From an uncultured Gemmatimonadaceae bacterium (GTDB lineage Bacteria; Gemmatimonadota; Gemmatimonadetes; Gemmatimonadales; Gemmatimonadaceae): 38,460 nucleotides of DNA. Position 1 is the stretch's first letter. Every line of letters starts with the position of its first letter. Below the pieces are notes generated by a model that saw only the letters and a list, made by a program, of their open reading frames with translations, was not told where the DNA came from and ran no database searches. Of the stretch, positions 3,807 to 37,515 are shown in pieces. The translations under genes and the position numbers were made by a program. The stretch is from positions 1-38,460 of the forward strand of contig CAWBOC010000012.1 in NCBI GenBank assembly GCA_963790305.1, written 5' to 3'.

Positions 3807-3841
3807 CCAGGTGTCTACAAAACCGGGGGAACTCCAATCAA

Positions 3842-4636: not shown

Positions 4637-4637
4637 G

Positions 4638-5114: not shown

Positions 5115-5119
5115 GTCGG

Positions 5120-6385
5120 TCAGCTCTCGTGCGCGGGTACGTGGGGTCCTCGTGCGCTGGCGCCGGCCAGCGATGGGAAAAGCAACGCCAGAAGGTAGGA
5201 TGGGCGCAATACCTCACGTGCGGGCACGAAGTCGCCGGTGACCCCGACGAAGAGGTCAGCCAGATCCTTGCGGCGCGAGAGCGTGTGAGCCGCGCGCTCG
5301 ATGAGGGCCGGGAAGGCGACCGCTGCCCCGACAAGGCGTTCGACGCGCCATTTGCCGCGAAACTCGGCGCGACGCGTGCGGTCGTACTCGCGCAGCGCCT
5401 CGTCGCCCGGTGAACGCGCGATGGCACCAAGTGCGGCGCTGGCCGCGAGCTCTCCCCCGCGAAGAGCCGCATAGATCCCCTCGCCCGTGAATGGATCGAA
5501 GAAGTCCGCCGCATCGCCGACGAGAAGAGCCCCGGGGGCCCATGCGCGGCGCGCTCGCACGTTGAAGGGTCCCGTCGCCACGACCGGTGACTCCCGCACC
5601 GCGCGAGTGAACCGCTTCGCGAGGTGAGGACGCCGGCCGAGCCATCCTGAGACGTATTGTCCCCGGTCGGCGCCGATCGCACGTGCTCGTGAGGCGGGAA
5701 TGACCATGGCGACGTTCACGAGACCGTCATCCACGGGCGCCAACCCGACGTATCCGTCTCGCTCCACGTGCATCTCGCCGTACTCGCCGATGTCGGCGAT
5801 GCCGCGCCAATGCGAAACGAGGGCTATCCGCCGGGGGAATCGCCCGCTGCGAATGAGTCCCAGGCGCCGGCCTACGATGCTCCGCAGTCCGTCCGCCCCG
5901 ACCACGAGCGGTGCGGCGAGCTCGCGCGCGCCGCCGTCGTTGGCGACGGCGACACCGCTGACGCGGCCGCGCGTGTCTCGTCGCACCTCCGTGACGCGCG
6001 TGGACTCCATGACGCGCGCGCCCGCACCACGAGCGGCGTCGAGCAGGATTTCATCGAGCACGCGGCGCCGGATCGCGAGCCCTCGGTCGCGGAATCCTCG
6101 AAAGCCGTGTTGCGCGGCAAAGTCGCCACGGAGCTGCCGGCCGGACGGCGCGCGAACGATCATCCCGGCCAGCCGCGACGGCCCTCGCGATTCGACCTCG
6201 GCGAGGACCCCCATCTCGTGCAGCACGCGCGACGCCTGCGGGCTCAGGTATTCCGCGCACGGCTTGTCGCGCGGAAACGATTCACGATCGACGATGAGCA
6301 CCTTCGCACCGGCGGTGGCGAGCGCGAATGCGGTGGACGCTCCCGCTGGCCCTCCGCCGACGACGATGACGTCGGCGTCGTTCAC
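5120..6385 (-). CDS. NAD(P)/FAD-dependent oxidoreductase (geranylgeranyl reductase/halogenase-like fold)
   Basis: VIVVGGGPAG, FPRDKPCAE, VVGADG, LLVGDAADFFDPFTGEGIYAAL; GTG at 6385 overlaps the radical SAM TGA. Confidence 0.88.
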   Translation of the reverse strand: MNDADVIVVGGGPAGASTAFALATAGAKVLIVDRESFPRDKPCAEYLSPQASRVLHEMGVLAEVESRGPSRLAGMIVRAPSGRQLRGDFAAQHGFRGFRDRGLAIRRRVLDEILLDAARGAGARVMESTRVTEVRRDTRGRVSGVAVANDGGARELAAPLVVGADGLRSIVGRRLGLIRSGRFPRRIALVSHWRGIADIGEYGEMHVERDGYVGLAPVDDGLVNVAMVIPASRARAIGADRGQYVSGWLGRRPHLAKRFTRAVRESPVVATGPFNVRARRAWAPGALLVGDAADFFDPFTGEGIYAALRGGELAASAALGAIARSPGDEALREYDRTRRAEFRGKWRVERLVGAAVAFPALIERAAHTLSRRKDLADLFVGVTGDFVPAREVLRPSYLLALLFPSLAGASARGPHVPAHES

Positions 6386-12960: not shown

Positions 12961-13092
12961 CTAGGGGTCAGGAGTCAGGAGTCAGGGATCAGGGGGTGTC
13001 AGGGTGGAGGTTGCAGGAGTTGCGCGAGCCGTTCCCCTCTAACCTCTACCCTGATACCCCCTGATCCCTGACTCCTGACTCCTGACTCCTAG
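12961..13092. repeat. 132-bp palindromic element, copy A (GGAGTCA/GGGATCA heptamer arms, CTAG ends)
   Basis: 52-bp arms (12961-13012 / 13041-13092), 49/52 Watson-Crick plus 3 G-T; lies between convergent genes. Confidence 0.95.
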
Positions 13093-17344: not shown

Positions 17345-17457
17345 GGCGGTAATCTAACGCGACTCGCATCCCTTGCAGGGGATGATCGTCCCTCATGAGA
17401 ACCGTCTCACCCCTGGCTCTAGACCCCTGCCTGGTCCCTCACGTACTATCACCCCCC

Positions 17458-18822
17458 ATGCGCAACGAACTTCCGCGCCGACTCGGCCTCTTCAGCGCCA
17501 TTGCGGTGCTCGTCGGCTCGACCATTGGATCGGGCATCTTCCGCTCGCCGGCGGTCATCGCCGACCGACTCCCCGGCCCGCTGCCGATGCTCTCGGTGTG
17601 GGTCGCCGGCGGCCTGCTCGCGCTGTGCGGGGCGCTCACGCTCGCCGAGGTCGCGGGGGCCTACCCTCGCACCGGTGGACTTTTCGTCTTCATCCGGGAA
17701 GGATGGGGCCGCCTGCCCGCCTTTCTGTTCGGCTGGTCGGAGCTCGTCCTCATTCGTGCCGCGTCGTTAGGTGCGATCTCGACGACGTTCGCCGAGTATT
17801 TCTTCCGTGCGATTGGGCGGGAGCCGAGTGTGGCCCCGTACGACGATTACGTCCACTACCTGGCGGCGGTCGCGATCATCGTCACCGCTGCGTTCAACTA
17901 TGTGGGCGTCCGATGGGGCGCGCTGGTGCAGAATCTGACGACGCTGGCGAAGTACGGCGGCCTCCTGTTCATCGTGCTGTTCGCGCTCGCTGTCGGCTTC
18001 CCCGAGGGCGCGTCGCATTTCACGCCGGCCGTCCCGCCCGGGAGCTTTACCATCTCGGCGTTCGGGCTGGCGCTGGTGTCCGTGCTGTGGGCGTTCGATG
18101 GCTGGGCCGACCTGAGCTTTGTCGCCGGGGAGGTGAAAGATCCTCGCCGCAACGTCCCCCGCGCGCTCATTCTCGGCGTGACCTCGGTCATCGTCATCTA
18201 TCTGCTCGCGAACGTCGCCTATCTGGCGATCTTCCCCGTCGATCAACTGCGGCAGTCGCCGCGCATCGCCGCCGACGTCGCCATGCAGCTCATCGGCACG
18301 GCCGGTGTGGTCTTCGTCGGTGTCACCGTCATGCTCTCGACGTTCGGCACGCTCAACGGAACACTGCTGACGTCCCCCCGCATCTTCTTTGCAATGGCGG
18401 ATGACGGGCTGTTTTTCCGAAAGGTGGCTGCGGTGCACCCGCGCTACGAGACGCCTTACGTCGCCATCGCGATGACGGCCGCCCTCGGCGTGGTCTTCGT
18501 ACTCTTCCGTACATTCGAGCAGCTCGCCGACACGTTCGTGACCGCGATCGTGCCCTTCTACGCCCTGGCCGTCGCATCGGTCTTCACGCTGCGAAAGCGG
18601 GCCGACTGGGATCCGCCCTTCCGTACGCCGCTGTATCCCATCGTCCCCCTCCTGTTCGTGCTGGCGACGATCTTCATCCTCGTCAACGCGATCGCCGATC
18701 CGACGAGCCGCTGGCCGACCGTGGCGGTGCTCGGGATCATTCTGGTCGGCGTGCCCGTGTACTACCTCACTGTTGGCAAGGGCGCACCGGGCGAGAGGGA
18801 AGGAGATCTGGGCCGAGTTTAG
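17458..18822 (+). CDS. APC family amino acid permease (LAT-like)
   Basis: VGSTIGSGIF, AEVAGAYPRTGG, LWAFDGW, GEVKDPRRNVPRA, PRIFFAMADDG. Confidence 0.93.
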   Translation: MRNELPRRLGLFSAIAVLVGSTIGSGIFRSPAVIADRLPGPLPMLSVWVAGGLLALCGALTLAEVAGAYPRTGGLFVFIREGWGRLPAFLFGWSELVLIRAASLGAISTTFAEYFFRAIGREPSVAPYDDYVHYLAAVAIIVTAAFNYVGVRWGALVQNLTTLAKYGGLLFIVLFALAVGFPEGASHFTPAVPPGSFTISAFGLALVSVLWAFDGWADLSFVAGEVKDPRRNVPRALILGVTSVIVIYLLANVAYLAIFPVDQLRQSPRIAADVAMQLIGTAGVVFVGVTVMLSTFGTLNGTLLTSPRIFFAMADDGLFFRKVAAVHPRYETPYVAIAMTAALGVVFVLFRTFEQLADTFVTAIVPFYALAVASVFTLRKRADWDPPFRTPLYPIVPLLFVLATIFILVNAIADPTSRWPTVAVLGIILVGVPVYYLTVGKGAPGEREGDLGRV

Positions 18823-18915
18823 CGCGGACTGCGCGGCGGCGGGCCAACAGCGTCGCGTTCCCCCTGGCCTTGGCCCGACCCTGCAAACATCTTGGGGACT
18901 CCTCATCCCCAACGC

Positions 18916-20813
18916 ATGGCGATTTTTCCCTCCCCGCAGCTCGTCGCTCGCAGTTCGCAGGTCGCATTCTTTGCCCTCATCGTTGCGCTGGCGAGTTGCG
19001 AAGAAGCCGCGGCCCCTGAAGGCAGCCCCGGCGATCTCACCGTTGCCGCGTACATCGACAACGACGCGTCCGGATCGCTGACTGTCGGCGATACGCCGCT
19101 TGCCGGCTTCGAGGTCACGCTCTTCGACGAGAGCCGCGAGGTCGCCACGGCGCAAACCGCGGCTGACGGCCGCGTCACCTTCAGCGATCTCGCGCCGGGC
19201 AGCTACCGAGTGGAGCCGGGTGGGACGCCGCCCGTGGGCGCGATGCTGACGTCGAATCCCATCACCGTCGGCGGTGATCGATTTTCGCGGTCGCTCGGTG
19301 TCGGTCGACTTCCGTTATCGCGATGTTCCCGGGCATCATCACCGGGCGCGTATTCCGTGATGAGAATGGCAACGGGACGTTCGAGCAGGGGACCGACGTG
19401 CCGGGTCCCGGTCTCTGGGTCTTTCTCCGCGCCGACACCGGCGCCATCGGCGCCAAGCTCGATTCCGTTCGGACGGATTCGCTCGGCGCCTATCGATTCG
19501 GACTCGTCGCGCCGGGCGACTACTTCCTCGAGTTCGAGCAGCTAGGCGCGATCAACTACGGAGCCAGCGGCAGGACGCGGCAGATCACCGTCGTCGGGGC
19601 GGCCACCGCCACGCAGAACGTGCTGTTCACCGGATCGATCTTCGTCACGATTCGTCAGGCGCGGGCGACCCCGGTCGACAGCACCGTCGCCGTCATTGGC
19701 ACCATTACCGCCCCACCGGGCGTGTTCAACGGCGCCACACCGGGAGCGAATTCCGAGATATGGGTTCAGGATACCAGCGGCGGAATTGCGGCCTTCCCGG
19801 TTCCGACGGCGGACTCTGCCACCTTCCGCCTTGGGACGAGCGTGGAGGTCATCGGTACGGTGAGCCTCAACGCCGGGCAGATTCAGATCGGTCGCACGGC
19901 CGCACCGCCCACGGTGCGTGCGAGACCGGGGGGAACTCCGGTTTCTCCGAAGCCGAACACGGCGGCGGAGGCACGGTCGTTCGCCGATGAGGGAGAGCTC
20001 ATCACCGTTTCTGGTCTGCGCGTGGTACTCGTGGGCGGCGGAACGAGCGGCGCCTTCAACGTCACGACCGTGTCTTCAGCGAACGACACGCTTGTCATTC
20101 GCGTGAATGGCACGGCGACCGGGCTGACGCGGAGCAGCTTCACCGTCGGTGAGCGGTACACGATCACCGGCATTCTCTCGCGCTTCAACGCGCAACCACA
20201 GCTCAAGCCTCGGTTCGCGACCAATGTCGTCCATCTCGTCGCTACGCCTGTCGCGCGCATAGTCATCAACGAGCTCATGCCGGATCCGGCCCTCGCGAGC
20301 GATGCCACCGGGGAGTGGATCGAGCTGTACAACTGGGGCACGGCTTCCATTGACATCCAAAACTGGAAACTGTTCGGTAACAGCGGCGGCGACACGGCGC
20401 GCATCACCTCATCGCTGGTCATAGCGCCGGGCGATTACGTGGTGCTCGGCATCAACGGCGATCCGACGGCCAACGGCGGTGTCACAGTCGATTTTGTCTA
20501 CCGCAGCGGCTATTCGCTGAACAACAGCACCACCACCGGTGACATCGTGGTCCTTCGAGATGCCGCCGGGGCCACGGTCGATTCCGTCGTGTATGTCTCT
20601 CCGCCCATTGGGGCGAGCATGGCCCTCCGCGACGCCTCCGCCGACAACACCGACGCGAAGGGAACGAACTGGCAGACGTCGACGACGCCGTACAACGCCT
20701 CCGACGAGGGAACTCCGGGTTCACAGAACAATGGCTACATCACTCCGACACAGCCCACTCCGCTCCTTCGCGGTGGGGGATCCATTGCGCCTTTGAGCAA
20801 GAAGCAACGATGA
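18916..20813 (+). CDS. Surface lipoprotein: 2x SdrD-B-like, 2x OB-fold-like, lamin-tail domain (indels at ~19261 and ~19319 join ORFs 18892-19545 and 19323-20813)
   Basis: LASC lipobox; AYIDNDASG and VFRDENGNG SdrD-B starts; IWVQDTSGGI and QPQLKPR OB-fold motifs; IVINELMPDP..GEWIELYN..GTPGSQN lamin-tail motifs. Confidence 0.75.
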
Positions 20814-21799
20814 GAGCTCAACTCGTCCCAACGCTCGCGCTGAGTCTCGCACTCCTGGCCGCGTGCGCTGATGACCCCGAACCGCCGTTCGCTGTTGAAG
20901 GAACGGGCCGAGTCACCGGTCGGCTGTTCTTCGACGCCGACAACAACGGTCTCTTCACGCCGTTAGGCGGCGATACGCTGTTGCGTAACGTCAGGGTGGA
21001 GCTTCGCGAGCGCGGGTCATCGGTGGTGATCGAGGCGATGACCACCGACGCGAATGGGGCATTCGACTTCGAGGGGATCTCCCCGGGGACGCACGACGTC
21101 TTTCTCGTGCAGGACACCGCGGTCGTCAAGAACCTCGTGTTCTGTGTGAACCCGCTGCGCGCCTCCGTGTACCGCGATGAAACCGCGTTTGTCACGGCAC
21201 CGGCCAAGCGCGGCTGCGTCATTCGGATCAACGTCGCCGAAGCGCTGCCGCTGGCGGCGCCGGTGACCGTTACCGGCATTGTCACCGCTCGCCAGGGGAC
21301 GTATCGCAGCGACAACACCTACATCCAGGATCCGACGGGAGGAATGCAGGTCTTTGGCTTGCCGGCGCTGAACCTCCAGATCGGAGACAGCATCGAAGTC
21401 TCTGGCATCCTTGGCCAGTTCGGTGGCGAGCTGCAGGTGATCAATCCCATCGTCGCGCCAAATCGGACGGCGACGACAGCACCGGCGCCGCTCGAGAGAA
21501 CGACGGGCGCCATCGCCGCGGCCGTCACTGCCCTCGGAGCCCGGGAGCCGGATGTTGGCCGGTTGCTGGTCGTCAGGCACGCGACGGTCGGCGCGTTCAC
21601 CTCTGGAAACGCGCTGCTGAATGACGGCTCCGGCGCCATCCAGATCCGACTCGACAACAACGCCGCCACCGCCATACCGACAAGCACCTTCGTGGCCGGG
21701 CGGTGCTATGACGTCGTCGGGATTCTCGGCTTTTTCAATGGCACTCCACAACTCAAACCGCGCATGCTCGCTGACGTGACGGAGGTCCCGTGTCCGTAA
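20810..21799 (+). CDS. Lipoprotein: SdrD-B-like + 2x OB-fold-like domains (paralogous to upstream gene)
   Basis: LAAC lipobox; LFFDADNNG, YIQDPTGGMQVF, LQIGDSIEVSG, GILGFFNGTPQLKPR; ATGA coupling. Confidence 0.8.
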   Translation: MRAQLVPTLALSLALLAACADDPEPPFAVEGTGRVTGRLFFDADNNGLFTPLGGDTLLRNVRVELRERGSSVVIEAMTTDANGAFDFEGISPGTHDVFLVQDTAVVKNLVFCVNPLRASVYRDETAFVTAPAKRGCVIRINVAEALPLAAPVTVTGIVTARQGTYRSDNTYIQDPTGGMQVFGLPALNLQIGDSIEVSGILGQFGGELQVINPIVAPNRTATTAPAPLERTTGAIAAAVTALGAREPDVGRLLVVRHATVGAFTSGNALLNDGSGAIQIRLDNNAATAIPTSTFVAGRCYDVVGILGFFNGTPQLKPRMLADVTEVPCP

Positions 21800-24700
21800 T
21801 TCGCCTCGCCCGCCTAGCGACGCTGGCCTGCGCGGCTCTCGCCGGCTCCGTCTCTCTTGCCGCTGCGCAGGCCTCGACGACGACCGGCAACATCCGCGGC
21901 CGCGTCACCGACGAGGGAGGAAATCCACTTCCCGCTGCGACCGTCGTCGCCACGAACGAGGAAACGGGATTCCTGCGGGGAACGCAGACCGACAATGAAG
22001 GCGTGTACGTCGTCCGCTTCCTCCCGCCTGGGAGCTACCGCGTGACGGCTCGGCGCATCGGACAGCAACAATCGGAGCTGCCGGGCATTCGCGTCACCGT
22101 CGGCAGCACCGCGCCGGCGAACCTCGTCCTGCGGACAGCCGCCGTTCAGCTCACGGGCGTCGAAGTCACCGCCAACGCTCGCGAGATCGACGTCGCAGAC
22201 GCCGGGGTGAAGCAGACGGTCTCGCAGGAAGAGATCGCCGAGCTGCCGTCGTTAGGGCGCGACTTCACCGACTTCATCGCGCTCTCGGGACTCGTCAGCC
22301 CAGCGCCGGAGGTCACCACCGGCGGCCAGTTCGCGATCGCCGGTCAGCGTCCTTCGCAGACGAGCATTCAGATCGATGGCGTGGACGCGAACAACGCCTT
22401 CTTCGGGGAGAATCGCGGTGGCAGCCGCATCCCCTTCGCCTTCTCGCTCGAGTCGATCCGCGAGTTCCAGATCATCACCAACGGCTTCGACGTCGAATTC
22501 GGCAACTACTCCGGTGGCGTCATCAACATCGTCACCCAGGGCGGAACGAACGACTTCCGCGCCTCGCTCTACGGCAACTATCGCGACAAGTCCCTGACGC
22601 GCGAGGACTTCGACGGCAATCCGCCGAACAACTTTTCGGTGCAGCAGTACGCGGGGAAAGTGTCAGGTCCAATTCGTCGCGACCGGTTGCACTATCTCGT
22701 CTCGGTCGACGGTCAGCGTCGACGTGAGCCGTTTCGCTCGATCACGCCGGCGTTCCTCCGCGGCAACAACGAGCCCGCCGACTCGGCGAGCGCGGACAGC
22801 CTCGAGCGCTTCTTCAATGTCCTCCAGAGCGAGTACGGAGTCGCCGGCGCTGCTTCGCAGTACGGGGAGTGGGAGATCTCCAACGACGTGCTGACCGTCT
22901 TCGGTCGCCTCGACTGGACGCTCAACGATCGGCACCGTCTGTCGGTGCGCAACAACTTCTCCGATCACAAGAACCTCGACGAAGCGGGAAGCTTCGCCTT
23001 TCCCGCCGGTCGCTCGCAGGCCGAGTCGTTCAAGGACCGGGCGAACTCGCTCGTGGGCGAGCTCACCAGCGTGATCACGCCGCGCATCTTCAACGTGCTG
23101 CGGGTGCAGTACGCGACCGAGGAGCGACCGCGCATCGGCAACAATCTGAAGCCGGAGCTGCGGGTCCGTCTCGACGCCAACGAGACGGTCGAGTACGGCG
23201 GTGCGTTCATCTCCTTCCGCAACTTCCTCGACGAAACGAAGCTCCAGATCGTCGACAACGTCACCCTCGCGCTCGGCGATCACTCGATCAAGCTCGGCAC
23301 CAACAACACGCTCACGTCGATCGAGAACATCTTCTGGCTCAACGGCTCGGGGGGGTTCGAGTTCAACTCGCTCGCCGACTTCGAGGCGTTCCGCCCATCG
23401 CGCTTCAACCGAAACGTGCGGGCCGATTCGGTGACGCCCAACGCGACGTTCGACGTCCAGGAATACTCGGTCTACGCCCAGGATGAATGGCGGATCACAC
23501 CGAAGCTGCTCGGCGTTTTCGGCGTGCGGTATGACATCCAGCGCTATGGGGACAGGCCGGGACGCGTGGTAGACGCGGAGCGCGCCTTCGGGCTCGAGAC
23601 CGGCATCGCGCCGATCGACGACAACAACGTGTCGCCGCGCGTGTCGTTCACATACGATCTCAAGGGTGACGCGACTCAGCTCATCCGCCTTGGCGGCGGG
23701 CTGTTCTACGGACGAGTGCCGTTCGTCATGGGCAGCAACGTCGCCAGCACCGACACGCCGCTGCTCGTCGTGGAATGCCGCGGCTCACTCAATGAAATCC
23801 CGGTGCCGCCCGAATGTACCGCCATCCGTGGCCCCCTACCGGAATTGGGCGGCCAGTGGCGAGGACAATCCGTTCGGATGCGGTGGCGTCGGCGGGGTCG
23901 GCGGGGTACCGGAGTATGCCTTCTGGAACAGCGGCTTCGAGATCCCGGAAACGATCAAGGCCAACATTGGCTATGAGCGACAGCTCCGTCCGGGGACGTT
24001 GGCGTCGATCGATCTGCTCTTCTCGGAATCCAGCAAGCTCTACACGGTGCGCAACATCAACCTGCGCGATCCGCAGTTCGAGCTCACCGGTGAAGGCGGC
24101 CGCCGCATCTTCGTTCCCGCCGGTCGCTTTTCGCCGAGCAGCGCGGCGGGCACCGACCGGTTCCGCAACGCCGACTTCGCGAGCGTGTACGTCAACTACA
24201 ACGACGGCATCGCCCGCTCCTTCGCCGCCTCGCTGAACGTCGACCATCGGCTGAGCGATTCCTCGGCGGTGCGCGTGTCGTACACGTTCACGCGCGCGTA
24301 CGACAACTCCACGTACTCGTGCTGCACCGCGAACGAGGGCTTCACCGGCCAGCGCTATGGCGCGCTGGGGCCTAACGTGATCGGAGGGATCGGCGACGAG
24401 TCCACCGGGTGGGGACCGAGCAACTTCAACCGAGACCACACGATCGTGCTCTCGGGGACGTTCCGCCTGCCGTTCGGCATTCGGGTGAGCCCGAAGTGGA
24501 GCATCCGCAGCGGAACGCCGTGGGGTCCGGAGGTGAGCGGCGACATCAATGCGGACGGTGTGAGCTTCAACGACCGCCCCTACATCTTCCGGCCGGAAGA
24601 GCTCCCGGTATTCGTCGCGGCGTCGGCAACCAACCCGGATTCCCTGGTTGCCGTGGCACGCGCGCGCTATTCGGATTTTCTGGGCGAGCACGACTGCGTG

Positions 24701-25039
24701 GGGGACTACGTGGGACAGATCATTCCGCGCAACACCTGCCGGCAGCCGTGGTTCAACCAGCTCGACATGACGCTGCGCAAGCGCTTCGAGATGGCGGGCG
24801 ATCAGGCCGCGGAGCTGCACATCGATCTGTTCAACGTCCTGAACGGGCTGAACAGCGACTGGGGACGGAACGTCTCGGTGACCGCGGCCCGCCGCAACAT
24901 CCTGCTCGCGCAGGACTATGATGCGGCGAACGGCCGGGTGCGGTACACGGTCCCGGCGACCTTCGCCTCACGCACGCAGGTGGGATCGAATCTGCTGCTG
25001 CAGTTCTCGGCGCAGATTGGAGTGAGGTACTACTTCTAG
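21790..25039 (+). CDS. TonB-dependent receptor (Oar-like, N-terminal carboxypeptidase-regulatory-like domain); +1 indel near 23813
   Basis: Signal peptide, GNIRGRVTD..PGSYRVT, LPSLGRDFTDF, FSLESIREFQIITNGFDVEFGNYSGGVIN plug, YAQDEW, SPRVSF, C-terminal QIGVRYYF. Confidence 0.92.
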
Positions 25040-25167
25040 GGTTCAGGAGTCAGGGATCAGGGATCAGGGGGTGCCAGGGTTGAGGTTTCAGGAGCTGCGC
25101 GAGCCGTTCTCCTCGAACCTTCACCCTGACACCCCCTGATCCCTGATCCCTGACTCCTGATCCCTAG
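25036..25167. repeat. 132-bp palindromic element, copy B; both CTAG ends contain the stop codons of the convergent genes
   Basis: 52-bp arms (48/52 complementary); loop caggagctgcgcgagccgtt is nearly identical to copy A. Confidence 0.95.
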
Positions 25168-26288
25168 TTGTTCGGCCAATCCCCCACCGCCGCCACGAAT
25201 TCCGGCCGGTCTACGAACGGATTCCGGTTCCCCTGCGCGCGGAATGCGAGAGAGTTGCGCTGCCGCTCGAACGCATCCGGTGGGTCGGCGTTGTGCCACT
25301 GGATGAGAATCGCTTCTTCGTCGTTGAAGTTCTCTAGCGTGAAATTGTCGGTGCGACGAAGGTTGTAGCGGGTGTAGAAGTAGAGAATCGCACGCGCGAT
25401 GTCGCCCTTCTTCGCATTGCGCGGCTCGAACACCGGATCACCCGCCGCGTTGAGCCCCTGCTTGCTGACATCGCCATCGAGGTCGGGATCGGGGCTCGTC
25501 CACGTGGGTGTCCCGACGACCACCCCGAACGGGAGATTGGAGCGGCGCGAGTTCGCCGTCTCGTCCGACGGGAAGAGGTGGTGGATGTCGCTCATCGCAG
25601 GATCGTCTTCCGCGCCCCGGCTCTGCGGCCACGAGTGCTCGGTGTTGAAGTTCGCCGTCACCGCCGTCGCGCGCGAGTTCACCATCGCGACACGGCCGAC
25701 ATAGATGTCGGCGAGCAGATCGTTGTTGTCCGGGTCCTCGACGAAGGAATACATCGAGTCGCGGGCGGCGTCGTAGCCGAGCACGCGTGCGCGACAGACG
25801 ATGCGATCCAGCGCCGCGAGGAGCGCAGCCCCGGTCTTTCCCTCGGCGGCGCTGTAGTAGCCAGCCGGGAGCGCCGTGTCGGCGCGGAACGCCGGCGGTG
25901 CGCATGCCACCGGTTCCACCGGCGTGCACTGCACCAGCGCCGTGCTCCAGCATCCGCCGTACGAGCCGGCGCCCGTCACCGCGCGGACTTCGGCGCGATA
26001 GGTCTGCCCGGCGATCGCGTCGAAGGTGACGCGCTCGCAATTGTCCGGCGTCGCCGACGTCTGCCCGGCTACGGTGAGATCGAAGTTGAACCCTTCCTCG
26101 GCGCAGATGGCGACCGTCGTCGCGCCTGACCTCCCAGGGACGAAGCTGAGGGTGTCGACTTCGTTGGCGACGAGTGTGTCGCTGAAGACCCCCGTGAGCG
26201 GGAAGCGCGAGTCGACCGGCGAGGTAAAGTCATCTTCGCAGGCGGCGACGGCGAGCAGGATCAGTGCGAGGGACAGCGTGCGGCGCAT
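25164..26288 (-). CDS. Endonuclease I family (His-Me finger, Bsn/EndA-like) lipoprotein with N-terminal Cys-rich beta domain
   Basis: VAAC lipobox; NTEHSWPQS, SDIHHLFP..NSRRSNLPFG, FEPR..KGDIARAILYF, WHNADPP..E..RN..QGNRNPFVDRPE. Confidence 0.92.
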   Translation of the reverse strand: MRRTLSLALILLAVAACEDDFTSPVDSRFPLTGVFSDTLVANEVDTLSFVPGRSGATTVAICAEEGFNFDLTVAGQTSATPDNCERVTFDAIAGQTYRAEVRAVTGAGSYGGCWSTALVQCTPVEPVACAPPAFRADTALPAGYYSAAEGKTGAALLAALDRIVCRARVLGYDAARDSMYSFVEDPDNNDLLADIYVGRVAMVNSRATAVTANFNTEHSWPQSRGAEDDPAMSDIHHLFPSDETANSRRSNLPFGVVVGTPTWTSPDPDLDGDVSKQGLNAAGDPVFEPRNAKKGDIARAILYFYTRYNLRRTDNFTLENFNDEEAILIQWHNADPPDAFERQRNSLAFRAQGNRNPFVDRPEFVAAVGDWPNN

Positions 26289-26320: not shown

Positions 26321-26433
26321 ATGAGGGGTCAGGAGTCAGGAGTCAGGGATCAGGGGGTGTCAGGGACGAGGACCTGGCGTTCCCTCGTTCCTGGAACCCC
26401 CTGATCCCTGACTCCTGACTCCTGACCCCTCGT
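26321..26433. repeat. Palindromic element copy C (same heptamer arms, shorter different loop)
   Basis: gaggggtcaggagtcaggagtcagggatcagggggtgtcaggg ... ccccctgatccctgactcctgactcctgacccctc. Confidence 0.92.
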
Positions 26434-26442
26434 TATCGCGAT

Positions 26443-27328
26443 CTAAAAGACCTCGAGGTTAATGTACTTCCGAGGATTTTTCTTGAAATCCGCCGTCAAG
26501 GAATCGACGCGCTGTACGAGCGCCCGCACGTCGTTGTACAGGCCCGGGTCGTTCAACAGCTTCGCCGCGCTGCCGTCGCCGCTCTCGATCTTCGTCAGCA
26601 GCGCGCTCATGCGCTCTCGCGTGTCCTGGAAGTCGGCCGAGAGCTGCGCGAGGTTGGCGGTCGTCGCCCTGATGTTTCGCATCGTCGAGTCCACCACCGA
26701 CGAGTCGATGGCGCTGACCGTTCGATTGAGATTTCGTGTCAGCCGAGACAGCTCGCGCGACTGCTCATCGGCGATCTGGCTGATTTGCTTCACGAGCCGG
26801 TTCGTCGATGAGATCGTGCCCTTGAGGTCCTCGATGCCACCTTCGCGCACCATTCTGGATCTCGAACGCCTGCGCGACGTCCGACACGCCGCGGCTCACC
26901 GAATCGAGGCGCGAAAGGAGCGCATCCATCGTCGGCGGAGGCGGAGCGGCGGGAATCGTGTCGCCCGGCCGCACGCTCGACCGGAAGTTGAGCGGGGGCT
27001 CGAGATTGATCGCCATGTCGCCGAAGAACGATGCAGTCTTGAGCTGCGCGATCACTCCATCGGGGACCTGATACTTCTCGTCGACCGCCATCCAGACATC
27101 GAGCCAGCCATCGGGACGGAGCTCCACACGGTCTACCGTCCCGACCGCGAACCCGGCGAGCCAAACCTCCTGCCCCTGCTTCAGATTCGCGCCCCAGCGA
27201 AACCTCGTGTAGAGCGGATAGCTGTCCGATAGCAGCCCGCTCCGCGACAGCCAGAGCGTCCCGAGAATGCCCACGATCAGCGCGACGGTCACGAACACAC
27301 CCACCAACACTTCGTTGCGTCGCTTCAT
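26443..27328 (-). CDS. mlaD: MlaD/MCE family protein; extra base near 26854
   Basis: RNEVLVGVFV TM, LKQGQEVWLAGFAVGTV, FFGDMAINLEP, helical region, GSAAKLLND..LY..DFKKNPRKY. Confidence 0.88.
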
Positions 27329-28191
27329 GACTGGAGATATTGAGCGAGATACACGGCGGTGAGCGCGTCGAGCAGGAGGATCATCACTGAGGAAATGACG
27401 ACGGTGCGTGCCGTGGAGCGGCCCACCCCCTCCGCGCCGGCCTCGGTAATGTAGCCCTCGTATGTGCCGATCAGCGAGATCGCGGCCCCGAACAGGGTGG
27501 CTTTGATGAGTCCATAGACCACCTGGAATCGGTCAAAGGTGAGGCGGAGCCCACTCACGAAATCGTTGTGTGTAACGTCAGTGGCCGCGATCGAGATGAG
27601 GTATCCCGCCGCGATGCCGGTCGCATTGGCGACGATCGTCAGCAGCGGCAGCATCAGCACCGCCGCCACGAACCTCGGTACGACGAGATAGGCCACCGGA
27701 TCGTACGCCAGCGTCTCGAGAGCGTCGATCTGCTCCGTCACGCGCATCGTCCCGATCTCGGCCGTCATACGCGCGCCCACGCGCCCGGCCAGCACGAGCG
27801 CGGTCAACAGGGGCCCGAGCTCGAGCACGATGCTCTGCCGGGTGATCCACGCCACGGCGGAGAGCTGCGCGCCTGGGAAGAGCTGGTAGAACGTCTGAAA
27901 AGCCGTGACCGCGCCGATGAACGCGGCGACGGTGAACACGAGGGGGAGCGAATCGACGCCAATGTTCCGGGCTTGCTGGAGCGTGAGCGGCAGCCAAGTG
28001 TCCCCGTCCCGAAAAGCCCGCGCCATGTCCCGCGTGAAGAACGTGCGCTTGCCGATGTCGCGAAAGAATCCGCGCGTCGATCGCGAGATCTGCCGGAAGA
28101 TGATGATCCCCGCCCGCTGCGGGATGGGAAACGTCGACGTGCGCCGTATGCCCGGTCCGGTATCGGCTTCCGTGTCCGGCGGGTAGGTCAC
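27325..28191 (-). CDS. mlaE: MlaE family ABC permease
   Basis: ELGPLLTALVLAGRVGA..AEIGTMRVTEQIDALE..LVVPR, GAEGVGRST; GTG overlaps the lptG stop. Confidence 0.92.
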   Translation of the reverse strand: MTYPPDTEADTGPGIRRTSTFPIPQRAGIIIFRQISRSTRGFFRDIGKRTFFTRDMARAFRDGDTWLPLTLQQARNIGVDSLPLVFTVAAFIGAVTAFQTFYQLFPGAQLSAVAWITRQSIVLELGPLLTALVLAGRVGARMTAEIGTMRVTEQIDALETLAYDPVAYLVVPRFVAAVLMLPLLTIVANATGIAAGYLISIAATDVTHNDFVSGLRLTFDRFQVVYGLIKATLFGAAISLIGTYEGYITEAGAEGVGRSTARTVVISSVMILLLDALTAVYLAQYLQS

Positions 28192-31030: not shown

Positions 31031-31090
31031 GAGGAACAAGGAATGAGGAGTGAGGGAATCAATTTCCCCACTGCTCATTCCTCTTTCCTC
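31031..31090. repeat. Short hairpin of GAGGAAT-like heptamers in the lptF/sprA divergent region
   Basis: gaggaacaaggaatgaggagtgagggaa ... ttccccactgctcattcctctttcctc. Confidence 0.7.
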
Positions 31091-31109
31091 ATCCCGTTGG
31101 GATATTATC

Positions 31110-34100
31110 GTGGTGGGACACGTCAATTTACGTTCCCGGCGCCCCGCGGGCGAACGGGAGCGCGCGTGGCTCCCCGCTGCCGGTGATCGGGTGCGCCTTC
31201 TCCGTCTCTTATTCCCCGCGGCCCTCTCGATCGTTCCCGCACTCGGCGCACAAGAGCCGGCGCAGCCGCCGGCGGCCGACACCGCGGCACGTCCGGGAAT
31301 GGGGGTCCGGCTTCGGTTTCCCAACGATTCGCTCGTTCTCGAGCGCCCGGCGGCGCTGGGGCCGTTCGGGCGGCTCGCGCCGGCGCGCGACAGCGGCGCG
31401 ACGATAGCTGATCGTCAGGCGTCGGCGCTGGTACAGATGACCGAGGTGGCCCGCGCCGCTCGCTGGGGGGAGGCGGTAGTCTCCCTATTCGCCGACTCGG
31501 CCGGCAGAAGGCCCGCAGAGCTCCCGGATTCCGCATTCCGCCCTGCCCAAGGGGCACCCACGAATTCGGCCGGCGACACCACGCGCCGAGCCGGAATCTT
31601 CGGCGAATATGCCGACCTCGGCCTTCATCTCACCTCGCGCATCGAGACCAAGATCGAGCGCGATCGCAACGAGCGCTGCCGCTCGAGTGATCTGCTCACG
31701 CCGTTCGCCAACTGCGTCGGTACGCTCCAGCCGCAGATGGACTTTCAGTTCAACGTCCAGACCGGCGGCGTCGTCGCCGATCGCATCCACGTCAACGTCG
31801 ACTACGACTCGGAGCGCGAGTTCGACGCCTCGAACAACATCTCGGTCTACTACCAGGGCAAGCCTGACGAGCTGCTCCACCGGCTCGAAGTCGGGAACGT
31901 CTCGTTCGCTGCGCCGCCGTCGCGCTTCATCACCGCCGGCATTCCCAGCGGCAACTACGGTCTCCAGGCCGTCGGCCAGATCGGGCCAATGCAGTTCCGC
32001 TCCATCATGGCGCAGCAGAAGGGAAACATCGTCCGCGACAAGGTCTTCACGATGGGCGATCGCTCGGTGCAGACGATCGAGCGCGACATCGAGGACTTCC
32101 TGGTCGAGCGTGGTCGCTTCTTCTGGGTGCTCGATCCCCGGCGAGCGTTCGCCGGCCGCTTTCCCAACGTCGACATCCTGGGCCGCGATCTCGATGCGCT
32201 CGCGGCGGCGATTCCGCTCGGGGAACGGCCGCGCCGCGTGCTGGTGTACCGCTACCGGCCCCCCACGGCAGGCGGCTCGGTCTCCCGCGACATCAACGGG
32301 CCCTATGCCGTCACTCGTTATGCGAGGAATGCCAACGAGATCGGACCGTTCGACGTGCTCCAGGAAGGCATCGACTACTACATCGACCCGACGAATCTCT
32401 GGATCGCGTTGGTGAATCCGGTGCAGCGTGGAGAACGGCTGGCCGTGTCCTACACCGTCGGCGGCCCAACCGGCGATGAGATCATTCTGGGAAGTGTCGG
32501 AGGCACCTTCCCGACGTCGCGAGGGCCCGCCGGCCGCGACACGATCAATCTGCTCTGGGATGCCGAAGTGCTGCCGGGCGATATCGTCTTCGACCAGGAG
32601 ATTCGCTCGGTGTACCGGCTGGGCGGGGAGGACCTGCGTCGCGAGACGGTCCAGCTCAAGATCGTCGTGGGTGCCGGAGGCGATCAGGAACGCCCCGTGG
32701 GAACGCCGTTCGAGACGTTCCTGCAGATGTTCGGCATGTCGCAGCCGGTCAACCCCTCGGCCTTCGACATCGAGAACAGGCTCTGGCCGAGACCGAGCGA
32801 TCCGAATCTGGCGCGCAACGCGGCGCAGGGTGGGGCGAAGCTCATTCGCGACTACTTCGTCGTTTTCCCGTCGCTGCGTCCTTTCGCCGATTCGGGCCTC
32901 GCCGATCCGCCCAATCCGCTGAACGATTCGCTGTACCGCACCCCGTTCGAGGATCTCTTCACGCAGCGACGGCCGCCCACGCAATACCGCTTGCGCGCTC
33001 GTTATGCGGCGGAAGGGGGCGGCGATGCCGGCACGCTGGCGCTGGGAGGCGTGCAGATCCGGCAGGGCTCGGAGCGGCTCACGCTCGACGGCGTGCCGCT
33101 CGTACGAGACGTGGACTATCGCGTGGACTACGAGCTTGGGCGCGTGTCCTTCAATCGGTCTGACACGCTATTCGCGCGTCCCCGTCGCGTCACCGTGCAG
33201 TACGAGGAGAATCCGATCTTCGCCGCGCAACCGACGTCGATCTTCGGTCTCGCGGCGGAGTTTCCGACCGAGGCGGGACGGCTGTCTTTCACCGCGCTCT
33301 CGCAACGGCAGAAGACGACGTTCAATCGGCCCCCGCTCGGCTTCGAGCCCGCGTCGGCGCTCATCGCCGGTGTCACTGGGCAGTTCAGCTTCACCAGCGA
33401 TGCGCTCACACGGGTGCTCGACCGGTTGCCCTTCGTCGACGCGACGCAGCAGTCGCGCATCGACGTGCAGGGCGAGTTCGCCACGACGCGGCCGCAGCCG
33501 AACGCGGCCGGCGTCGCCTACGTCGAGACGTTCGAGGGCGAGGGGGGCATCACGATCAACCTCACCGAGGGAGCATGGCGCCTGGGCAGCCGGCCTTACG
33601 CTCCTGGCGGCCTTCCCGTCGGGAGCCGGCCATACGGATTCGAGCTGGACTCCGCCGCCGCGATCGCCTGGCAGAATCTCGTGCGCGTGGGCGACGCCGC
33701 GTTGCAGTTCTTCCCCGAGCAAGTGGACAGCGCGTTCAGGTTCGTCGGTGGGCAGGCATTCCGCGCCCCCGAGCTCATCTTGTGGAACACACTCTATCCC
33801 ACCGGCATCGAAGGCTTCCTGTCCCCTCGGGGCTCCACGCCGCCCGAGTATCTCTGGCAAACGCCGCCCAGAATCGGACGTCGGTGGCGCTCTCTCATGC
33901 AGCCGCTGTCGCAGTCCGGCATCGATCTCACGCGCGTGGAACAGATCGAGTTCTGGACGATGATCGAGACCGACCCCGTACGTCGCGATCGCAACCCCAC
34001 AATCGTGCTCGACCTCGGCGACATCTCCGAGAACGCCGTCGCCTTTCGTCCCGAGACGCTCTTCGTCAATGGGAACGACTCCACGTTTACCGGCCGAGCA

Positions 34101-37100
34101 CTCACCGGGTACGACGTCATGAACTCGGAGCGCGACGAGATCACTCGCTCGTTCGACGCCGCCAGTGACGATGTCGGACTGCCCAGCGATCGGGCCGATA
34201 CGCTCATCCGAGTCACCGACGGCGTGCCTGAGCGCCTGATACCAGAGGAGCTCTGCCGCGGGGGCTCGGTGATCGCCGAGCTGGGGGACACGCGACACAA
34301 CTGCTCGGTGGCCAACCGTCGTCTCGACGAAGAAGATCTCGATCTCGACGGCGTGCTCAACATGAGCGGACCGGAGAATTCCACCGAGCGCCTCCTGCGC
34401 TACGTTATCGACCTCGCCGATCCGCAGAGCATCACGAAGATGGGACTCTGTCATCGCCATCCGAGTGACCGCGCCGGTACCGGCCCTCGTACCTTCTGCT
34501 GGGCATTGGTGCGAGTGTCGCTGGCATCAGCGGAGCTGATCAACGATCCCACCATTAGGCGCATCCGGTCGGTCCGTCTCACGCTCGTATCGGGCGATGC
34601 CGCGGACACCGCGTTCACCTACACGCCGCTGTCGCGTTTCCGGTTGTTAGGCGCACCGTGGGTCAAGCGGGGAACCACGCCGATCGCCGGCATCGCCGGA
34701 GTCCGCGAAACCGGGAGCGGGTTCGTGCAGGCGACGGTGATCGGGACACTCGATGCCGGGACCACGGGCATTCAATACCAGCCGCCACCGGGCGTTGCCG
34801 AAGAGCCCCCCGATCGCACCGACGATGTCTCCGCCGAGCGAACGCAGGTCAACGAGAAGTCGCTGAGGTTGCTGGCGACGAGCCTCGACCTGAACGAGCG
34901 CGCCGAGGCGTATTACCGGTTCCCGGAAGGCGACAAGAGCTTCATGGGGTATCGCTCGCTGCGAGTGTGGGCGCGTGGGCGCGGGAAGGGGTGGGGCACC
35001 GGGGGCGACCTGCAGTTCTACATCCGGAATGGGACGCGATCCGGACAACTTTTATCTGTACCGCTCGCCGGCGAATGTCGGCAGCGACTCTACCGCGTGG
35101 CTGCCGGAGCACGCCATCGAGTTCGATCGCTTCTATCGCCTGCGCGCGCAGGTGCAGAACGCGTTTCTGCGCGGCGGCGATTCGCTGGCGTGCTCAGGCG
35201 TCGATCTGGCGCTTATCGCCGCGAGCGAGCCGCCGACCGCACCGGGTAGCCGCCGCTTCGCGGCCTGCCAGGATGGATACATCGTCTACACGGCCAGCCC
35301 GGCGATCACGCCGCCGAATCTCGCCGCCGTGCAAGAGCTCTCGGTTGGAATCGTGCGCGTGAGCGACGTTGGGGCCGGGGCAGGGGGCCCGATCACGCCG
35401 CTCGACACGCTGGAGCTCTGGGTCGATGACGTCCGCCTCGGTGGTGTCGTCGATGACGCCGGGTATGCGGGACAGTTCGGGCTCACCATCGCGGCCTCCG
35501 ACCTCGGGTCCGTGACGATGAACGTCAGTCGCCGCGATCACAACTTCCGGCAGCTGGGTGAGCAACCGTCGTACGTGACCGACGATCAGGTGAATCTGTC
35601 CTCGTCGCTGCGGCTCGATCGGCTGTTGCCGCGGGCGCTCGGGCTCGCCATTCCCATCACGATCAGTCACGCCTCGTCAGGCACTGACCCGTTCTTTCTC
35701 GCCCGATCGGACGTGTCGGGGCAGGAGCTCGCGGGGCTTCGCAAGCCGAAGACGTCGGCGACCTCGTACACCCTCGCCATGCGGCGCGCCACTCGTGTGG
35801 GCCGCGGCCTCACGGGCCTCGTACTCGACAACCTGTCGCTCACCTCGGCCTACACCAGCGGCAATCAGCGGAGTGAATATCAGATCGGTGATGCGTCCTC
35901 GTTCACCGGCGCGGTCGACTGGGACTTTGCCCGTCGCGACCGGGAAGGTGCGCGCATGCCGGAGTGGATTCGTGGAGCGATCAACGCGCTCCCGGGCTGG
36001 CTGCGCGAGAGCGCCGCGCTGCGGGGAGTGCGGGACGCGGAGCTGCGCTTCGCGCCGTCGACGATCCGCCTGACGAGCGGGTGGGCGCGCGCGGAAGACC
36101 GCAGGTCGTCGTTCTCGCTGCCCGTCTTCCTGGACACCGACACGGGGCGGACCGTGGCGTCGCTGCGCCACGACTGGCGCAATCGCGGGCTCCTCGAGCT
36201 GCGACCCGTCCAGGCGCTCATGGCACGCCTCGACGTCAACTCGGTGCGCGACCTCAGAAACTACGGAGAGGACAGCGATATCGGCATCGTCGCCGGCTTC
36301 GAGCGTGGCGAGCTGTTTGGTCTCGACGTCGGCCTCGAGCGAGAGCGACAGATGCAGAGCGCGCTCGCCTTCTCGCCGGCGCTGACTACGTGGCTGCGGC
36401 CGACGCTCGAGATCGGGAGCACGTTCACGATGTTCCGCGATCCCAACACGAGCACCCTCGTACGCGCCGCGGGAGACAGTGGCGAGCTGCGGCTGCCGCG
36501 CCGGCTCTCCAACTCGCAGATCATCTCTGCCGGTGCGTCGGTCGACCTCGGCGGTGCCATCGGCCGTTATGCGGGCGACTCGGGTGTCGCGCGCCGCATT
36601 GCGAACGCCATCCAGCCCGTTCGCCTGACATGGACGCGCGAGATGCGCTCGCTCTTCGATGCAACACCTTTCACACCTCAATTCTCCTACCAGCTAGGAC
36701 TTGGCGGCATCGACGACTTTCGTTCACTCGACGGGGTGCTCGCGACTACCGCCGGCGTCGCGCGCGGCCTCACCCTCGACCACACCGTGTCACTGCCGTT
36801 CGGGGCCAGCGTGACGCAGCACTACCAGCGCACCGTGAACACCACCTGGACGCGTCGCGCTCAGGACGCTCAATCGATGCTCGAGGCGCGCTCGGTGACC
36901 TTTCCCGACGTCGCGCTGCGATGGAGCTTCCGGCCGGCTCTGCTCTCGGGCCTCGTATCATCGGTGAGCGCGGAGGCGCGTGCGGCGATCACGCGCGCGA
37001 GCAGCTTTCAGCCAGCGCTGCCGAGCGGGGGTATCACTCTGTCGGGGGTCCGTACGGAGTTGGAGACGCGACAATACCCGTTGCGTGGCACGCTGGTGTG

Positions 37101-37515
37101 GGATCTCTTTGGCGGGTTTACGACCTCGGCCGGGTGGCTGCGAACGACGCGTCGCGAGCTCCGCAGCGGCGGCACGAGCGAAGGGGAGCAAAACGACGTG
37201 ACGGGCGACATCAGCAAGCTCTTCCGCCTCCCCGAAGCGTGGGGTTTGCCGTCGAACGTCCTGCGCGCCTACGTCGGGCTCCAGCGCATCAGTACCGAGA
37301 CGATCTTCCTTGCCGACACCGCCGCCAAGCGCATTGCCGACAACGGCCGCTGGGCGCTCAACGCGCGCGCCGAGACCGACGTGGCGGAAAACGCGTCGTT
37401 CTCCCTGTCGGCGTCGCGCACGGTGACGTACGATGAAGTGAACGACCGGCGGTTCACGCAGTTTGTGCTCTCGGCGGTCCTACAGCTCGAATTCTTCGCG
37501 GGGGAACTGAAGTGA
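31110..37515 (+). CDS. sprA: SprA/Sov-like large outer-membrane beta-barrel protein (~2100 aa); extra base near 35028; start uncertain
   Basis: FNVQTGGVVADRIHVNVDYDSEREFD..NNISVYYQGKPDE..RLEVGNVSF, GSERLTLDG..DYRVDYELG, EEDLDLDG and ELWVDDVRL resemble SprA motifs; YIR|MGRDPDNFY joins the two ORFs. Confidence 0.8.

Follow-up and report, generated by a model that had tools for sequence, protein, structure and literature searches.

In a contig of an uncultured Gemmatimonadaceae bacterium, four adjacent genes encode two lipoproteins (lipoA and lipoB), a TonB-dependent transporter (TBDT) and an endonuclease I family lipoprotein. We propose that this locus is a system resembling the Ddb system of Bacteroides, which would capture, cut and import extracellular nucleic acid for nutrition, and we put the probability of this reading at roughly 0.55. 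The window, that is, the whole stretch of DNA analyzed, is contig CAWBOC010000012.1 (C12 in our numbering; 38,460 bp) of assembly GCA_963790305.1, a metagenome-assembled genome (MAG) of 4.31 Mb in 13 contigs, 94% complete and with a GC content of about 66%. The proposal rests on the gene structure, the domain folds, the homology to DUF5689 proteins and a conserved linkage to nuclease genes. An earlier note on this DNA had also read the locus as a nucleic-acid utilization system, and it was probably right. The features of the locus, in window coordinates, are as follows.

18916-20813, plus strand: lipoA, a surface-type lipoprotein
about 18997-18999, plus strand: lipobox cysteine of the lipoA signal peptide
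about 19051-19254, plus strand: lipoA, first SdrD_B/CnaB domain
about 19344-19559, plus strand: lipoA, second SdrD_B/CnaB domain
about 19635-20237, plus strand: lipoA, tandem OB pair of the DUF5689 type (Pfam match 19752-20219)
20247-20597, plus strand: lipoA, lamin-tail domain (LTD, PF00932), 70.1 bits against a cut-off of 34.3
about 70 residues after the LTD, plus strand: lipoA, C-terminal tail
20810-21799, plus strand: lipoB, a lipoprotein of 329 residues
20900-21214, plus strand: lipoB, CnaB/SdrD_B domain (SdrD_B, 28.2 bits)
21215-21484, plus strand: lipoB, first OB domain (OB1)
21485-21796, plus strand: lipoB, second OB domain (OB2)
21790-25039, plus strand: Oar-type TBDT with CarboxypepD_reg, Plug and OMP_b-brl_4
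21892-22131, plus strand: TBDT, CarboxypepD_reg, 80.3 bits
about 22213-22518, plus strand: TBDT, Plug, 23.0 bits against a cut-off of 23.9
up to the C-terminal ...RYYF, plus strand: TBDT, beta-barrel OMP_b-brl_4, 130 bits on one frame piece and 90 bits on the other
25164-26288, minus strand: endonuclease I family lipoprotein of 374 residues, converging on the TBDT gene

The first three genes overlap, as the earlier note had described. The start of lipoB lies on the stop of lipoA (4 nt of overlap), and the start of the TBDT gene lies on the stop of lipoB (10 nt). The two lipoproteins are paralogues, with about 28% identity over lipoB residues 33-326, a stretch that covers all three lipoB domains. 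The transporter starts with a signal peptide and carries an N-terminal carboxypeptidase-regulatory-like domain, as does the annotated RA0C_RS04915 of Riemerella anatipestifer; its intact orthologs are about 1050-1090 residues long, and open frames of 1087-1139 residues are also given for them. No SusD-family match was found by Pfam in the open reading frames (ORFs) of the locus, and the SusC/RagA model TIGR04056 gives the transporter 27-28 bits against a cut-off of 368 (368.25). Thus, the locus does not qualify as a SusC/SusD polysaccharide utilization locus (PUL), and the picture of a PUL-like build without SusD holds. An NCBIfam scan of the locus gave nothing specific beyond Pfam.

The two lipoproteins place OB folds on stalks. 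In lipoA, the two SdrD_B domains score 32.7 and 30.0 bits by Pfam; the DUF5689 match reaches 28.7 bits against a cut-off of 28.6, and 30.6 bits in another scan. Its LTD is the sole LTD in the genome, and its intact orthologs have 619-637 residues. For lipoB, the OB region matches tRNA_anti-codon with 33.5 bits (cut-off 27). Its own DUF5689 score of 21.6 bits is under the cut-off; 34 of 40 members of the lipoB family match the model at E <= 0.01, and a lipoprotein with the tandem OB domains of DUF5689 thus lies directly beside the transporter. The lipobox cysteine of lipoB, Cys19, is followed by ADD and is invariant in 40/40 aligned homologs. Neither Pfam nor NCBIfam detects a catalytic domain in lipoA or lipoB. 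The composition given in the earlier note, with SdrD_B stalks, tandem OB-like domains, an LTD in one of the two proteins and no catalytic domain, is borne out by these matches and by the lipoB model.

The AlphaFold2 model of lipoB, built from 40 homologs, has a mean pLDDT of 93.8 and a pTM of 0.83, and VIA-align splits it into three domains. Residues 31-135 are CnaB/SdrD_B-like, resembling GBS52, UafA and SdrD (Z 12.6-13.4, rmsd 1.6-2.4, 95-100 residues). Residues 136-225 form an OB fold close to RPA, the anticodon-binding domains of Asp/Asn-tRNA synthetases and the HIN domains of p204, p202 and IFI16 (Z 10.2-11.3). Residues 226-329 form another, close to the N-terminal domains of AsnRS and LysRS, Teb1 OB-B and a CST subunit (Z 10.2-11.1). 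The best Foldseek match of the whole model is the p204 HINab-dsDNA complex (E 1.8e-7), and the p202-dsDNA structure 4jbm aligns with Z 10.2. The earlier note had staked its reading on these domains being OB folds, and two OB folds are what the model contains; a Z of 10-11 for an 85-residue OB barrel in a predicted structure establishes the fold, not the ligand. In the model of the lipoA ortholog of the same-genus genome G008, the two stalk domains and the OB pair (residues about 40-445) reach a pLDDT of about 90. The LTD and tail (residues about 447-636) stay under 50, likely because most alignment rows hold a second OB pair there, and this model was left unused for the LTD.

The same OB module occurs in proteins that carry hydrolases. 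A whole-library search with lipoB gave 2587 matches at E <= 1e-3, 116 of them at E <= 1e-30, and eight long matches, with stalk-repeat giants left out, were scanned for domain fusions. DUF5689 is joined to SNase in one protein (P0127); to an LTD, DUF6359, SNase and a Metallophos/5'-nucleotidase in another (P0150); and, as four DUF5689 stretches, to a PLD-like domain with a type IX secretion system tail in a third (P0133). P0129 and P0131 combine LTD and OB. We therefore consider that secreted nucleic-acid hydrolases repeatedly carry the OB module as an accessory. The nearest clusters in the ESM Atlas are unnamed or SdrD_B/OB, from Gemmatimonadota only.

A comparable set of modules, an OB pair of DUF5689-like type with an LTD, accompanies the nucleases YhcR of Bacillus and ExeM/NucH of Shewanella and others (NF033681), and the DUF5689 model matches Bacillus subtilis among the control genomes. 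A lipoA-like ortholog in a sister lineage (G192; DUF5689 57.3 bits) aligns to positions 3-110 of the 546 of the ExeM/NucH model, with 47.3 bits, a cut-off of 300 and E 1.4e-12. No ExeM (NF033681) match was found in lipoA or lipoB, and neither has OB or LTD modules fused to an EEP domain. Unlike YhcR and ExeM, lipoA and lipoB are without a catalytic domain; here, binding modules and nuclease are separate lipoproteins coupled to a TBDT. P0150, in which an LTD and DUF5689 are joined to SNase and a 5'-nucleotidase, has accessory modules of the same kind.

The nuclease is the product of the convergent gene. Endonuclease_1 (PF04231) matches with 139 bits against a cut-off of 25 over profile positions 43-235 of 235 (domain at 25200-25766), and it is the sole match of this family in the assembly. 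Its lipobox Cys17, followed by EDD, has a counterpart in all 10 orthologs aligned for motifs (the L031 row, an ORF in the wrong frame, was left out). Query residues 233-361 align to the Vibrio nuclease Vvn (1OUP/1OUO; 1OUP residues 96-208) and keep D-x-H/N-x-L and N-x-x-R-S-N. N(T/A)EH(S/T/A)WP, AN..R.N.P, FEPR..(K/R)GD(I/V)AR and QGNRNPF(I/V)D are invariant in the 10 orthologs, and the presumed catalytic histidine and asparagine are taken to lie among these residues. Thus, the convergent endonuclease I lipoprotein with intact motifs is confirmed. Its N-terminal region of about 110 residues is without a family match and is missing in genus g32.

The DNA-utilization loci of Bacteroidota that the earlier note had mentioned can be named. 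Sharan et al. (PNAS 2025; PMC12478041) describe the ddbABCDEF DNA-utilization locus of Bacteroides thetaiotaomicron. According to the passages compared, DdbC is a TBDT and DdbD a DUF5689 protein with a p202-like fold, described with 4jbm, and an AlphaFold3 interface with DdbC; DdbD is proposed to be a substrate-delivering partner or lid for DdbC. DdbA and DdbF are lipoprotein nucleases, DdbB is a periplasmic nuclease, and DdbE is also encoded; the comparative genomics presented there covers Bacteroidota only. In Riemerella anatipestifer, RA0C_RS04915, a TBDT with CarboxypepD_reg, and RA0C_RS04920, a DUF5689 protein, are each reported as indispensable for natural transformation (Huang et al. 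2021; PMC8459023), and a nuclease gene is reported to neighbor this pair (PMC12478041).

The locus here shares with ddb, as described in those passages, a TBDT gene beside a DUF5689 lipoprotein with the OB-pair fold of the dsDNA-binding HIN/p202 type, nuclease lipoproteins with signal peptidase II (SPII) signals in the locus, PUL-like logic without SusD and acidic residues after the lipobox cysteine. It differs in belonging to Gemmatimonadota rather than Bacteroidota, in having the lipoprotein genes before the TBDT gene, and in having a paralogous pair of OB lipoproteins with CnaB/SdrD_B stalks, of which one carries an LTD. It has one nuclease (endonuclease I, or a metallo-beta-lactamase (MBL) fold protein in sister lineages) against three Ddb nucleases, whose families are unnamed in the passages compared, and neither a periplasmic nuclease of the DdbB type with a signal peptidase I (SPI) signal nor a DdbE. 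The Riemerella transporter is annotated with PF13620, a carboxypeptidase-regulatory-like domain, and is, in the published description, adjacent to and co-transcribed with its DUF5689 partner. However, that partner is described with DUF5017 (choice-of-anchor J) and has neither an LTD nor CnaB stalks, the two genes stand in the opposite order, and the function there is transformation; the locus here has a tightly linked, predicted non-specific nuclease, with catabolic genes near some orthologs. In both comparisons, the transporter is likened by domain type and gene context, and the Gemmatimonadaceae locus by its genes and structure models. With SusCD PULs it shares the combination of surface binding lipoprotein, surface hydrolase and TonB-dependent importer, but a SusD/RagB homolog is missing and nucleic acid is the presumed substrate. 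The core logic and the two protein types are the same as in the Ddb and Riemerella systems, in another phylum, so that this kind of system is already published.

Linkage to a nuclease gene is the main argument from comparative genomics. By protein search, lipoB homologs occur in 14/41 relatives including the genome of the window (G000), and in 6/8 genomes of the same genus. A lipoB profile matches in 74/301 Gemmatimonadota genomes, again including G000; only 12 of these combine a lipoA-like gene with a lipoB match of ortholog grade (E < 1e-100). Searching for related loci with a single protein returned Gemmatimonadaceae or Gemmatimonadota MAGs and six Stenotrophomonas loci, in which the match is confined to the stalk region. 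Neighborhoods were mapped by tblastn with the four locus proteins and by Pfam checks. In 12/12 assessable Gemmatimonadaceae loci (the window, G008, G004, G005, G006, G126, G017, G096, G217, L039, L041 and L042; L035, L036 and L040 end at a contig edge and were left out), an endonuclease I gene adjoins the TBDT gene, while identity falls to about 48% for lipoB and about 50% for the endonuclease. In G005 and G017, the endonuclease gene is co-directional and directly after the TBDT gene, not convergent, and in at least two loci the upstream flank is different. One of the carriers, G096, is a complete genome in a single contig. The C-terminal module of lipoA-type proteins also varies, with an LTD in the genus of the window and a second OB pair in g32 and in other families.

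A different, nuclease-like lipoprotein takes this place in families f2 and f4. Endonuclease I was found at 0/3 assessable ortholog-grade operons of these families; a divergent gene for an MBL-fold lipoprotein of about 400 residues lies beside the lipoA-like gene in 4/4 assessable loci (G140, G192, G089 and G201). These lipoproteins (L079:6664-8046, minus; L080:13210-14628, plus; L082:13469-14884, plus; L092:1956-3050, minus) have an N-terminal beta-rich domain and the MBL fold. Among solved structures, their best matches are to ComEC (9vc6, E 2.1e-6), and the C-terminal part of ComEC/Rec2 (TIGR00361) is their best or second-best NCBIfam model (E 1e-9 to 4e-12, under the cut-off); a B3-like metallo-beta-lactamase model reaches similar scores and comes first for G140. 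Each of the two lineages thus encodes a lipoprotein nuclease or nuclease-like protein in the locus. The TBDT gene of G192 faces a convergent adenosine deaminase gene, and past the MBL gene, at about 1 kb, comes ComEC. ComEC is adjacent in G201 as well; the two family f4 loci examined (L080 and L092) thus both have it about 1-3 kb away. In G089, an amidohydrolase gene follows the MBL gene.

The controls were 12 paralogous loci in which a TBDT gene, with a product 21-25% identical to that of the window, is followed by a gene for a single OB lipoprotein. Among 52 neighboring ORFs, a nuclease or MBL domain was found at 0/12 control loci; the neighbors are VanZ, polysaccharide deacetylase/DUF3473, FemAB-like proteins, glycosyltransferases and histidine kinases. 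We therefore consider the nuclease link specific to the ortholog clade, and it supports the nucleic-acid reading; the association between this transporter operon and nucleases that the earlier note had made decisive is present. In these comparisons, the link persists where the flank changes, where the gene is inverted and where a non-orthologous protein replaces the nuclease. This division agrees with a quick maximum-likelihood tree of 21 transporters, in which the outgroup branches are long. There, 12/12 ortholog-grade transporters fall in one clade (SH-aLRT 99), in which the eight rows with endonuclease I (support 98) stand apart from the four with the MBL lipoprotein (support 94). Another clade (support 100) holds seven paralogous transporters, and two paralogues from the genome of the window lie outside the ortholog clade. 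The paralogous pair itself, an Oar-type TBDT followed by one stalked OB lipoprotein in an exopolysaccharide-type context, is widespread (L026-L029, L086-L091 and L093-L098), and in family f2 the lipoB profile matches 47/125 sampled genomes, mostly with the paralogous type.

We propose the following mechanism, in which we infer that the proteins are exposed at the surface and bind nucleic acid, that lipoB acts as a lid, what the transporter carries and that the purpose is nutrition. The lipoproteins lipoA and lipoB would be lipid-anchored, with their CnaB-type stalks holding the tandem OB pairs off the membrane. With its OB pair, which is basic (pI 10.65), and its LTD (pI 4.05), lipoA could capture DNA or RNA at the cell surface; the charge of the OB pair, as calculated from the sequence, suits a polymer binder. 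The endonuclease I lipoprotein would then cut the polymer non-specifically into oligonucleotides. Since lipoB is translationally coupled to the TBDT, it may be the substrate-delivering lid or partner, as proposed for DdbD and DdbC, and the CarboxypepD_reg TBDT would move the oligonucleotides into the periplasm with energy from TonB. Nucleotidases encoded elsewhere in the genome would free nucleosides and phosphate as sources of P, N and C. Candidates for these downstream enzymes lie on contig C3 (1967-9611): an adenosine deaminase (1967-3010), a lipoprotein of 1056 residues (3232-6399) in which the 5'-nucleotidase module occurs twice, and a probable uridine kinase. The last, and a two-component pair there that we take to be PhoBR-like, were named by inspection of their sequences.

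Several observations weigh against this proposal. The OB domains of lipoB have pI values of 4.6 and 6.8 and are thus acidic to neutral, which argues, at the level of calculated charge, against strong non-specific DNA binding; lipoB may rather serve for short products or for docking to the transporter. OB folds bind sugars and proteins too. The paralogous pairs in polysaccharide contexts mean that the architecture alone does not imply nucleic acid. The compared genomes are kin, mostly of one family, so that conserved adjacency partly reflects shared ancestry. Two of the four locus genes are frame-broken in this assembly. The C-A-D-D of lipoB and the C-E-D-D of the endonuclease speak for the proposal, as they fit C(x/xx)(D/E)(D/E), quoted in PMC12478041 as the lipoprotein export signal of Bacteroidota; lipoA orthologs carry C-(D/E)-E-A. 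However, this signal is validated for that phylum, and the endonuclease could face the periplasm here.

The frame breaks, which the earlier note did not mention, are three. In lipoA the frame changes from 1 to 2 at about 19261 and then to 0 at about 19318, and in the TBDT gene it shifts at about 23809-23813. Each break is one extra base relative to the 86%-identical DNA of the same-genus G008. In soil-metagenome contigs aligned to 18850-25100, the only 1-nt indels are a missing base at 19261/19262, 19318 and 23809/23813, and one soil contig of 194 nt, with 1 mismatch, is without the extra base of the TBDT gene. In the corrected frames, the identity to G008 at the amino-acid level is 93-95% for the TBDT and 66-74% for lipoA, with no stops. 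Relatives and a near-identical soil contig lack the extra bases, and we therefore read them as assembly indels; the extra bases in both genes are probably assembly errors. Other genes are split as well. Relative to G008, 3/11 window genes are broken, namely lipoA, the TBDT gene and an MlaD-like gene (26446-27577, minus strand; two frames, break at about 26854), and 2/7 other amino-acid permease paralogues elsewhere in the genome have consecutive matches in different frames. A giant SprA-like gene (31047-37512, plus strand) lies in two overlapping frames, with a split suspected at about 35000 (about 34900-35250). Together, the MlaD-like, SprA-like, lipoA and TBDT splits suggest about one indel per 4-6 kb in the assembly.

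Other explanations were weighed against the nutritional one. It is improbable, in our estimate, that the three insertions are real and that the locus is a decaying pseudogene cluster that no longer functions in this organism. Three uncompensated +1 insertions within 6.2 kb, missing from every related sequence over the region, speak for such decay; but the same kind of split in the MlaD-like gene and in the permease paralogues, the soil contig without the TBDT insertion, and the high identity and stop-free corrected frames of the broken genes speak against it, and the pattern fits indel errors in a 13-contig assembly. A more serious thought, which we still regard as unlikely, is that the locus forms the outer-membrane step of natural transformation or, more broadly, of ComEC-dependent import of DNA into the cytoplasm, with a nuclease that trims or processes it on the way. 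The Riemerella pair provides the precedent (PMC8459023), ComEC lies close to the locus in family f4, the MBL lipoproteins resemble the nuclease domain of ComEC, and the genome of the window encodes ComEC and DprA. However, both proteins are near-universal (found in 10 and 11 of 14 control genomes, respectively) and are unlinked to the locus here, and four secretin matches in the genome, two of them equal-scoring, make a conventional pilus route possible. Transforming DNA would be degraded by a non-specific endonuclease I anchored next to the transporter, and the adenosine deaminase and amidohydrolase neighbors in G192 and G089 point to catabolism. No member of the Gemmatimonadota is known to be naturally competent, although no search was aimed at this point, and that also counts against this explanation.

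The ligand of the transporter and its lipoproteins could also be something else, such as an oligosaccharide, an exopolysaccharide (EPS) fragment or a peptide, with the nuclease gene adjacent by inherited synteny and not functionally coupled; we find this rather doubtful. Paralogous pairs of the same architecture stand among polysaccharide-type genes without a nuclease in 12/12 loci, the OB domains of lipoB are not basic, the convergent endonuclease gene of the window would be on a separate transcript, and the compared genomes are relatives. Against these points, the nuclease link is kept where the upstream flank is lost, where the nuclease gene is inverted and where an unrelated MBL nuclease-like lipoprotein stands in for endonuclease I; the endonuclease gene follows the TBDT gene co-directionally in G005 and G017; the OB module is fused to SNase, PLD-like and 5'-nucleotidase domains; and the orthologous and paralogous transporters form separate clades (SH-aLRT 99 and 100). 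Least probable, to our mind, is that the Oar-type TBDT works outward and exports or displays the lipoproteins, the nuclease or both, with products that remodel or anchor the extracellular DNA (eDNA) of a biofilm matrix. Oar of Myxococcus xanthus is a TBDT with an N-terminal carboxypeptidase-regulatory-like domain, like the transporter of the window, and we know of no OB lipoprotein or nuclease partner of Oar. Unlike an importer, it is implicated in protein secretion, being reported as required for secretion of the protease PopC (PMC6434023), and biofilm formation has been tied to the homolog of an extracellular DNase in B. thetaiotaomicron (PMC8851478, PMC12478041); the EPS-type contexts of the paralogous pairs would suit this idea too. 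But the closest characterized TBDT/DUF5689 pairs are described as serving DNA depletion or uptake, that is, import (PMC12478041, PMC8459023). The lipoproteins here carry their own lipoprotein signals and, after the cysteine, acidic residues that resemble an export signal independent of any dedicated TBDT, and the locus holds nothing like PopC or its regulators.

Around the locus, the following further features were recorded.

17395-18822, plus strand: APC-family amino-acid permease (Pfam AA_permease_2, 203.8 bits), neighbor of the locus, 93 nt upstream of lipoA
25043-25160, no strand: TCAGGRR palindrome between the convergent TBDT and endonuclease genes
26329-26425, no strand: further copy of the TCAGGRR palindrome, just upstream of the endonuclease gene

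The amino-acid permease was considered as an inner-membrane component of the system and rejected as unsupported; a permease gene is found upstream of the locus in L032, L033, L035, L036, L040 and L041 and is missing there in L038 and L039. The palindromes are long and imperfect, built of tandem TCAGGRR heptamers and their complement, and a third lies at 12968-13085; about 175 such arms occur across the 13 contigs. The copy at 25043-25160 is likely a bidirectional terminator or a repetitive extragenic palindromic (REP)-like element, and the depth of soil-metagenome contigs spikes at 24911-25100. This copy and the one at 26329-26425 bracket the endonuclease gene, which in G005 and G017 is oriented otherwise than in the other close relatives, and the palindrome may be a REP-like element that doubles as terminator and recombination site. 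A scan for sigma-70-like promoters gave 0 against 0.9 expected, and terminator-like sites numbered 10 against 5.4 +/- 2.5 expected, none of them at gene ends; both scans are uninformative for this phylum. Farther away, at 637-7851 on the minus strand and 2571-3803 on the plus strand, lies a run of genes that may form a small biosynthetic cluster, interrupted by an IS3-type transposase (helix-turn-helix and rve). The encoded proteins are a ketoacyl synthase, a polyketide cyclase-like protein, a methyltransferase, a flavin reductase, a FAD-binding or halogenase-like protein and a B12-binding radical SAM protein. Elsewhere in the assembly, two secretin ORFs of equal score and equal length lie near contig ends (C3:186336-186845 and C11:42842-43351), which suggests that contigs C3 and C11 overlap or duplicate each other.

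No Gemmatimonadota DNA-utilization locus was found by full-text searches of the literature, and the supplements of PMC12478041, PMC8459023 and PMC11495043 could list some. The close relatives of the window by protein similarity are all titled as Gemmatimonadaceae or Gemmatimonadota MAGs. Eleven sequencing runs, labeled as soil or root metagenomes, share DNA with the window in small shares (<= 0.11), with no RNA runs among the 11; the labels hint at a soil habitat of the source organism.

Extracellular DNA is a large pool of P and N in soil, and Gemmatimonadota are abundant there, with a physiology that is poorly known. A much wider picture can be imagined, which we hold to be speculative and unlikely as a whole: a modular TBDT machine for DNA import across the Fibrobacterota-Chlorobiota-Bacteroidota (FCB) superphylum, with a constant core of OB lipoprotein and TBDT, a swappable nuclease, a new class of free-standing, lipid-anchored MBL nucleases of the ComEC type, a pilus-independent entry that feeds ComEC in family f4, and soil Gemmatimonadota that are both transformable and DNA-feeding. 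The gain from the present proposal would be incremental, not conceptual. If the proposal is right, it would extend the TBDT/DUF5689 system of Bacteroidota, characterized in 2021 and 2025, across the FCB group. It would also provide natural variants, endonuclease I against a ComEC-like MBL protein and an LTD against an extra OB pair, for probing the nucleic-acid cargo of a TBDT, and a gene marker for the turnover of eDNA in soil metagenomes.

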